UHGV virus genome: UHGV-0109738
Reading direction: 5' to 3' (one strand)
DNA: 64,000 nucleotides
Source of the DNA: a virus
This document shows, piece after piece, positions 2,881-4,050 of the stretch. A program made the translations under genes and the position numbers. A model generated the notes under the pieces. The model searched no databases, was not told the origin of the DNA, and saw only the letters and a list, made by a program, of their open reading frames with translations. Every line of letters begins with the position of its first letter. The stretch's first letter is position 1.

Positions 2881-3285
2881 ATGAGTGAAGCTCTTAAGGC
2901 ACTGAACAATATTCGTACACTTCGCGCACAGGCTCGTGAAACAGATCTGGCAACTCTGGAAGAGATGCTGGAAAAACTCACCACAATCGTTGAAGATCGC
3001 CGTGAGGAAGAAAATTCAGCCCGTAAAGAACAAGAAGAACGTCAGGCTAAACTGGAAGCCTTCCGCCAGAAATTGTTAGAAGACGGTATCGATCCTACAG
3101 AACTACTCGCTTCAGTTGGTTCATCCCAGCCTAAAACCAAATCAACTCGTGCTCCTCGTCCTGCTAAATACAAATATACAGATGAAAACGGTAATGAGCA
3201 GACTTGGACGGGTCAGGGCCGTACTCCTAAAGCAATCGCCGCTGCTATCGAAGCTGGTAAGACACTGGAAGACTTTGCTATCTAA
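2881..3285 (+). CDS. H-NS family nucleoid-associated protein (134 aa paralog)
   Basis: Full-length similarity to H-NS: N-terminal coiled-coil ([17 protein letters not shown]) and C-terminal DNA-binding motif [10 protein letters not shown]. Confidence 0.85.
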
Positions 3286-3348
3286 CCGCTACAGCATATC
3301 CGGGCTTCACTGTTCTCAAGATAACAGGCCCGGAAAATATTCGATTAT

Positions 3349-3729
3349 TCATCCAAGACTATCCCAGTCTGGCAGGTTGTTAACGACCTTTCGCCACCAA
3401 TGATACGCAGCCATAAGAACACCAAAACAAATACCTGCGACGACGCTTGAGACAAATGCAGTGCCCGGTTGTATCCCTGTATCCTTCCAAGTAAAAAACC
3501 ACATACAGATCCCCCATGCCGGACCAAACCATCCACCCATCAACAAAGTGATTTGCCAGAATGAGGCAAAAGGTAGCGGTGGTATCTTGAGTCCAGCTTT
3601 CCATGCGAGGTGTAGCAAAGGAGGGGCATAATTACTTCGCCACATCCTCTTGCTTTCCATGATGGCAATAGCGTGTTTCTTTTTAGCTTCAAAGCCCATA
3701 AGGTTCCTTCCAGATCCACCTTTACTCAT
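3349..3729 (-). CDS. hypothetical inner-membrane protein
   Basis: ORF track; hydrophobic segments; start codon uncertain. Confidence 0.35.
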   Translation of the reverse strand: MSKGGSGRNLMGFEAKKKHAIAIMESKRMWRSNYAPPLLHLAWKAGLKIPPLPFASFWQITLLMGGWFGPAWGICMWFFTWKDTGIQPGTAFVSSVVAGICFGVLMAAYHWWRKVVNNLPDWDSLG

Positions 3730-3807
3730 CTATCTATCGATAAAAAGCCACAATAGACAATAATGATTATCAATTCCATGTATGTAAGTCAAAAATAACT
3801 CAAATAG

Positions 3808-4050
3808 TCATTCCTTTAGATCTTCTGGTGAAACCCGGTCACATGCCATTTTCTCAAGCATTCTTTGTAATCTTTTCATTTTCAACTTATGTGCTTTTTT
3901 CTCACCAATCTCCTGATAGTATTCTTCACGACGTTCGTTGACCACGCTCCTGAATTTTTTCAAAAGCTGTTCAAGTGTTTTGATGTCGGTAGTTGCGGCT
4001 TCCACTTGGATTTTTTTATACATATACATCACATGAAATTCATCAATCAT
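3808..4050 (-). CDS. truncated H-NS-like protein (H-NS N-terminal oligomerisation domain only, H-NST-like)
   Basis: 80 aa; segment LLKKFRSVVNERREE resembles H-NS N-terminal coiled-coil; AAGGAG SD before internal ATG chosen as start. Confidence 0.45.
   Translation of the reverse strand: MIDEFHVMYMYKKIQVEAATTDIKTLEQLLKKFRSVVNERREEYYQEIGEKKAHKLKMKRLQRMLEKMACDRVSPEDLKE

Follow-up and report, generated by a model that had tools for sequence, protein, structure and literature searches.

The 64,000-nucleotide stretch of DNA analyzed here, referred to below as the window, carries close to its start two genes of the H-NS family, one of full length and one encoding a protein of 80 residues, next to a prophage that bears cdt genes. 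What are these two genes, does the short one antagonize H-NS silencing, and does the pair have anything to do with the neighboring prophage? The region is very probably the tRNA-proximal end of the Escherichia coli serU genomic island, as found in strains CFT073, 536, and Nissle 1917, and bears two known island-borne H-NS family genes; in this explanation the hnsT copy is the UPEC allele with a valine at position 16, most likely a weak H-NS antagonist at best, and the pair is not dedicated to the cdt prophage. We infer that the two proteins act in trans on the general H-NS regulon. Three genes stand at the center of the locus:

2881..3285, plus strand: hfp (hnsB), full-length third H-NS paralog of 134 residues, with PF22470 and PF00816 domains and PDB matches to H-NS and StpA; DNA identical to CFT073 C_RS11425, protein WP_001287374.1.
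3349..3699, minus strand: DUF6404 gene encoding a membrane protein, located between hfp and hnsT and downstream of hnsT on the same strand (Pfam DUF6404, 8e-42); annotated in CFT073.
3808..4050, minus strand: hnsT(UPEC), truncated H-NS-like protein of 80 residues comprising the oligomerization domain only, Val16 allele (matches to PF22470 and 3nr7); identical to CFT073 C_RS11435, WP_000564596.1.

The identity of the region is given by its DNA. Window positions 2200-4800 reproduce the sequence of E. coli CFT073 and Nissle 1917 base for base, except for a single 1-bp deletion at ~4599, and the same segment is also matched by ATCC 25922 and many other E. coli genomes, which identifies the two genes as hfp (hnsB) and hnsT(UPEC). 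According to its annotation, the CFT073 counterpart lies just inside the tRNA-Ser gene serU and adjoins mtfA, asnT, and the yersiniabactin island, and a review assigns both H-NST and Hfp/H-NSB to the 22.5-kb serU island that CFT073 and 536 carry (PMC7074111). The pair thus sits in an island, as the first-pass annotation had it, and this island is horizontally acquired. The names hnsB in CFT073 and hfp in 536 designate one gene, found in E. coli at serU or asnW (Fitzgerald et al., PMC7544231). As cited in two later papers, hfp and hnsT(UPEC) were first described by Williamson and Free in 2005 (via PMC3897749 and PMC7074111). The pair, which had been presented as an open question, has thus been known since 2005 and repeatedly studied, and its annotation here is correct without being a discovery. 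The domain content of both proteins, the identity with CFT073, the state of residue 16, the island context, and the secondary insertion of the prophage were observed directly here. At least 80% of the 2.6-kb segment 2200-4800 is present in 277 of 5426 complete E. coli genomes, and an hnsT homolog occurs in 558 of these 5426. A promoter and terminator scan of 2650-5300 was uninformative, promoter-like sites being less numerous than in shuffled sequence.

The hfp product is the full-length H-NS family protein expected at 2881-3285, where the ORF indeed encodes both H-NS domains. [quoted passage not shown] It shares 85 of 134 residues with K-12 H-NS, hence ~63% identity over aligned residues, the value given in the literature being 58%. 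Its first 20 residues are nearly those of H-NS, and its QGR DNA-binding motif is intact, TWTGQGRTP aligning with the same motif of K-12 H-NS. Hfp scores under both NCBIfam equivalog cut-offs (178 bits against 211 for H-NS and 163 against 202 for StpA), and is by sequence a distinct paralog, neither an hns nor a stpA ortholog. The window protein is that of CFT073, and it shares its two-domain architecture, QGR motif, and island location with the proteins named Hfp, H-NSB, or Hns2 in E. coli 536, CFT073, and 042 and in Salmonella Enteritidis ROD21, no difference having been detected. The core H-NS and StpA proteins of E. coli display the same domain architecture and are reported to form heteromers (PMC2814080), whereas Hfp is accessory, island-borne, and of low abundance, and, unlike StpA, is stable without H-NS (PMC2814080, PMC9765446, PMC7544231).

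The sequence of Hfp fits the silencer role assigned to it in published work. The protein forms heteromers with H-NS, is stable in its absence, and is repressed by it, low temperature and stationary phase being the main conditions of its expression (PMC2814080). Hfp and H-NS jointly repress bgl, fimbrial genes, and the K15 capsule (PMC2814080), such work having been published for strains 536 and CFT073. In CFT073 devoid of hns and stpA, for which ChIP and abundance data exist, ~6,000 Hfp molecules per cell occupy the highest-affinity H-NS sites, including RfaH-regulated operons (PMC9765446). Published work also has Hfp binding AT-rich DNA and acting as a backup or modulator of the silencing that H-NS exerts on bgl, capsule, fimbrial, and RfaH-dependent operons.

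The second gene lies on the opposite strand. An ORF spans 3808-4095 on the minus strand, and the ATG at 4050, preceded six bases upstream by AAGGAG, yields the 80-residue product in the ORF table; the same 243-nt coding sequence is called by RefSeq in identical genomes. The first-pass annotation described this protein as resembling the H-NS oligomerization domain alone, on the strength of the motif LLKKFRSVVNERREE, which corresponds to H-NST residues 29-43. Domain analysis agrees: PF22470 covers residues 1-79 of the 80 (E 4.8e-11, 42.8 bits against a gathering cut-off of 24.5), and Pfam returns neither PF00816 nor any other C-terminal domain. The alignment with the H-NS N-terminal domain, on which the earlier proposal had been made to depend, is likewise significant against H-NS 1-83 (3nr7, E 1e-5, aligned to 3nr7 residues 10-78). 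The protein is 27-29% identical to H-NS and Hfp. Most of the homologs listed are 79-81 residues long and come from Escherichia, Salmonella, Klebsiella, Citrobacter, Kluyvera, and Raoultella. NCBIfam contains no dedicated model for H-NST, and none for DUF6404. H-NST(UPEC) in the serU islands of CFT073 and 536 agrees with the window copy in coding sequence, length (80 residues), Val16, island, flanking genes, and serU boundary; compared with these strains the gene is the same, and the window genome has in addition a serU gene split by the cdt-I prophage and a 1-bp frameshift two genes upstream.

The hfp and hnsT genes are convergent and 522 bp apart, which refines the spacing of about 500 bp on opposite strands noted previously; the DUF6404 gene between them had gone unmentioned. 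The stop codon of the hnsT ORF, at 3808-3810, is separated from this gene by an intergenic stretch. DUF6404 also follows hnsT in four of six other E. coli islands inspected (HM670, EC17GD31, XH988, and RIVM_C037791), the two islands devoid of it at this place being those of E2348/69 (IE3) and E500002. On its other side, hnsT is preceded on its own strand by a conserved module, defined by Pfam matches and gene order:

4123..6171, minus strand: conserved upstream module on the hnsT strand, comprising the four genes below.
5278-6114, minus strand: DUF6387 gene (Pfam, 3e-51).
4843-5061, minus strand: AlpA-like HTH gene (Pfam Phage_AlpA, 2e-18).
About 4472-4761, minus strand: hypothetical gene of 96 residues, frameshifted in the window.
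4123-4419, minus strand: hypothetical gene of 98 residues.

Reading along the minus strand, hnsT is thus the penultimate gene of a series made up of DUF6387, the AlpA-like HTH protein, two small hypothetical proteins, hnsT, and DUF6404. The order of the upstream module is the same in CFT073, IE3 of E2348/69, EC17GD31, and XH988, and the module is found again in the tRNA-proximal part of serU, IE3, and related islands. Neither the 96- nor the 98-residue hypothetical protein has a Pfam or NCBIfam match. The single base by which segment 2200-4800 differs from CFT073 lies in the former gene and outside hfp and hnsT: a run of seven T in CFT073 is reduced to six at ~4599, which frameshifts the 96-residue gene two positions upstream of hnsT. 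The other 100% matches listed span 2602 bases against 2601 in the window and appear to share the CFT073 length; the frameshift could reflect a real pseudogene or a homopolymer sequencing error. Upstream of hfp, the plus strand encodes a RepL-like replication or maintenance protein (672-1253, Pfam RepL, 1.2e-5) and a DUF4756 protein (2243-2722). RepL-like genes recur in related islands, which hints at an episomal stage of these elements.

Would the truncated protein of the window act as an antagonist of H-NS? Truncated H-NS proteins had been invoked as dominant antagonists of silencing, and for the H-NST family this holds. H-NST(EPEC) of strain E2348/69, encoded by island IE3 at asnW, is the proven H-NS antagonist: it relieves H-NS repression of proU and bgl, induces the LEE, and binds LEE regulatory DNA (PMC7074111, PMC3897749). 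In H-NST(EPEC), Leu30 is needed for the interaction with H-NS, and Arg60 and Arg63 contribute to DNA binding (PMC3897749). An Ala16 H-NST such as that of EPEC would join H-NS oligomers without adding a DNA-binding domain, and silencing would thereby be relieved. This dominant-negative hetero-oligomer mechanism is supported because peptides of the H-NS dimerization and multimerization sites inhibit DNA bridging in vitro (PMC5647153). The phage T7 protein gp5.5 and the engineered H-NS 1-58 and 56-83 peptides are proposed to operate in the same mode, hindering H-NS multimerization or bridging without occupying DNA (PMC3897749, PMC5647153); gp5.5 is, however, unrelated in sequence, whereas H-NST is a true homolog of the H-NS N-terminal domain and spans both dimerization sites. 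The heteromerization, the silencing and anti-silencing activities, and the effect of residue 16 described below are all taken from the literature.

The window protein is 90% identical to H-NST(EPEC) and of equal length, and its gene is preceded by the same module, from DUF6387 to the two small hypothetical genes; no hfp gene lies within 4 kb of hnsT in E2348/69. The three residues identified in the EPEC protein are kept in the window, and among the best 120 cluster representatives of 730 H-NST homologs Leu30 is invariant (120/120), with Arg60 present in 108 and Arg63 in 102. Residue 16 differs: codon 16 of hnsT (4003-4005) is GTG and encodes valine, while the alignment places an alanine at this position in H-NST of E2348/69, in H-NS, and in Hfp. 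Seven more substitutions separate the EPEC and window proteins (I23L, E50D, H54R, L61A, M64L, K79I, and E80D). In H-NST(EPEC), replacement of Ala16 by either valine or leucine leads to the loss of LEE induction and DNA binding, and A16V also abolishes proU derepression (Levine et al., PMC3897749). The UPEC protein itself, with Val16, is cited in PMC3897749 and PMC7074111 as a weak or nonfunctional H-NS antagonist, and the activity attributed to it by these citing papers concerns K-12 H-NS at proU and bgl only.

It is on this evidence that the reading of the window protein as an active dominant-negative antagonist, which would poison H-NS oligomers and de-silence acquired genes including the adjacent cdt prophage, has to be weighed. 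The oligomerization domain without a DNA-binding domain, the conservation of L30, R60, and R63, and the activity of the 90% identical EPEC ortholog at proU, bgl, and the LEE all speak for it. However, since the window allele carries Val16 and A16V is inactive, the dominant-antagonist role is contradicted, or much weakened, for this allele, and we hold such an activity to be distinctly unlikely. The absence of Ala16 bears on the antagonist function and not on membership of the H-NST family, which is defined by homology. Judged from residue 16, the window H-NST is most likely a weak H-NS antagonist at best.

Residue 16 was surveyed in the same best 120 cluster representatives of the 730 H-NST homologs:

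Ala16: 94 representatives.
Ser16: 12 representatives.
Val16: 9 representatives.
Thr16: 4 representatives.
Gly16: 1 representative.

The Val16 sequences form two lineages with 86-89% mutual identity, and each of the two has an Ala16 protein as its nearest neighbor at 95-99% identity. The codons also differ: the serU type has GTG where its Ala16 relative has GCG, and the second type, also found in Citrobacter koseri, has GTT where its relative has GCT. From the different codons and the separate Ala16 neighbors it follows that A16V arose at least twice. This independent origin in two H-NST lineages is the only new element of the present analysis, and a modest one. One Val16 cluster, of the second lineage, occurs on at least 1000 contigs. 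All nine matches listed at 100% identity to the window hnsT have the ORF intact, and the band at 99% identity or more amounts to 170 complete genomes. Pairwise dN/dS values between the window hnsT and five other E. coli alleles range from 0.11 to 0.31, with mostly synonymous differences; these pairwise values, each calculated from 80 codons, carry mainly the signal of selection on the whole family rather than on the Val16 branches. They argue against a decaying gene and leave room for a retuned function, and, together with the recurrence and frequency of Val16, they sit uneasily with a protein that is simply dead.

Two further readings of the allele meet on these data. In the first, the Val16 protein has been retuned and recurrently selected, its binding being attenuated or redirected to another partner such as Hfp or StpA, or limited to certain conditions, for instance low temperature, so that it would fine-tune the pool of paralogs. 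The two origins through different codons, the abundance of one Val16 cluster, the intact and conserved ORF, and the low dN/dS are consistent with this idea, as is the expression of hfp at low temperature and in stationary phase (PMC2814080). On the other hand, A-to-V takes one transition and could have recurred without selection, the dN/dS values carry the family-wide signal just mentioned, and Val16 does not track the presence of hfp; the suggestion is tentative and rather doubtful. In the second reading, the 80-residue ORF would be a decaying, functionless remnant of a full-length hns-like gene, in keeping with its short length, its low identity to H-NS and Hfp, the inactivity reported for the UPEC allele in PMC3897749, and the frameshift in the neighboring small gene. 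Against such decay stand the length of 79-81 residues kept in most of the representatives listed from Escherichia to Raoultella, the strong ribosome-binding site, dN/dS well below 1, and the position downstream of hnsT, where the DUF6404 gene is found and no remnant of a DNA-binding domain; this makes it very improbable.

Co-adaptation of Val16 with the adjacent Hfp was considered as well and rejected, as Ala16 alleles adjoin hfp in XH988 and in the serU island of EC17GD31. Co-variation of the two is further contradicted by E2348/69, which has Ala16 and no hfp nearby, and by RIVM_C037791, which has Val16 and no full-length paralog within 3.5 kb. The "DNA-binding protein" annotated next to the second-lineage Val16 hnsT is RepL/HTH-like and not an H-NS paralog.

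Returning to the preferred explanation, a serU island with a weak hnsT allele, its last component is the relationship between the pair and the prophage, which is recorded at the island boundary:

6395..6456, minus strand: 3' remnant of the tRNA-Ser gene serU, ~62 nt, which marks both the boundary of the island and the junction at which the prophage is attached; the sequence agrees fully with CFT073 serU over this 3' part and then diverges.
6793 to about 8893: cdtCBA genes, type I.

Beyond the serU remnant, the DNA diverges from CFT073 and carries type I cdtC, cdtB, and cdtA as well as lambdoid tail genes. The lambdoid prophage covers ~57 kb, from 6457 to the ORF at 62736-63962 at the end of the window, and the E. 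coli genomes that match best have a tyrosine integrase annotated in the corresponding region. An ARAGORN search of the window yields no intact tRNA. Neither the 5' half of serU nor a second copy of the prophage attachment site was found there, the core being single-copy; an intact serU probably lies beyond base 64000. As serU is split and only its 3' part stands beside the island, the island was already present when the phage inserted into serU. The junction between the island and cdt is covered in five of the 5426 complete E. coli genomes, compared with the 277 that carry the island segment, and the adjacency is best read as that of two mobile elements at the same tRNA hotspot.

The proposal that the pair modulates the adjacent prophage and its cdt genes therefore finds no support: the prophage is a secondary insertion rarely found beside the island, and no study was found in titles and abstracts that connects Hfp or H-NST with cdt, co-mentions of H-NS, cdt, and prophages being incidental. 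The same two points count against an active antagonist in so far as it would lift silencing of cdt. If Hfp affects the AT-rich prophage, it would do so in the generic way of any H-NS-like silencer.

Positions 50000-64000 correspond to the early, replication, and integrase region of the prophage, whose products as annotated in matching genomes are a LexA-family, repressor-like protein, ERF, SSB, a replicative helicase, NinB, and an integrase. This region is rare in E. coli: 35 of the 5426 complete genomes match it, none above 94% identity. The element occupies a different site in the related genome M15, adjoining dgcM.

Overall, there is no basis for treating Hfp and H-NST as regulators of the neighboring cdt-I prophage, and the strong anti-silencing of the EPEC protein should not be assumed for the Val16 allele of this genome. 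With Hfp and H-NST, the island is a textbook example of a mobile element equipped with its own versions of the host xenogeneic silencer and of an anti-silencer, and the recurrence of Val16 provides a small, testable lead on the tuning of anti-silencers.
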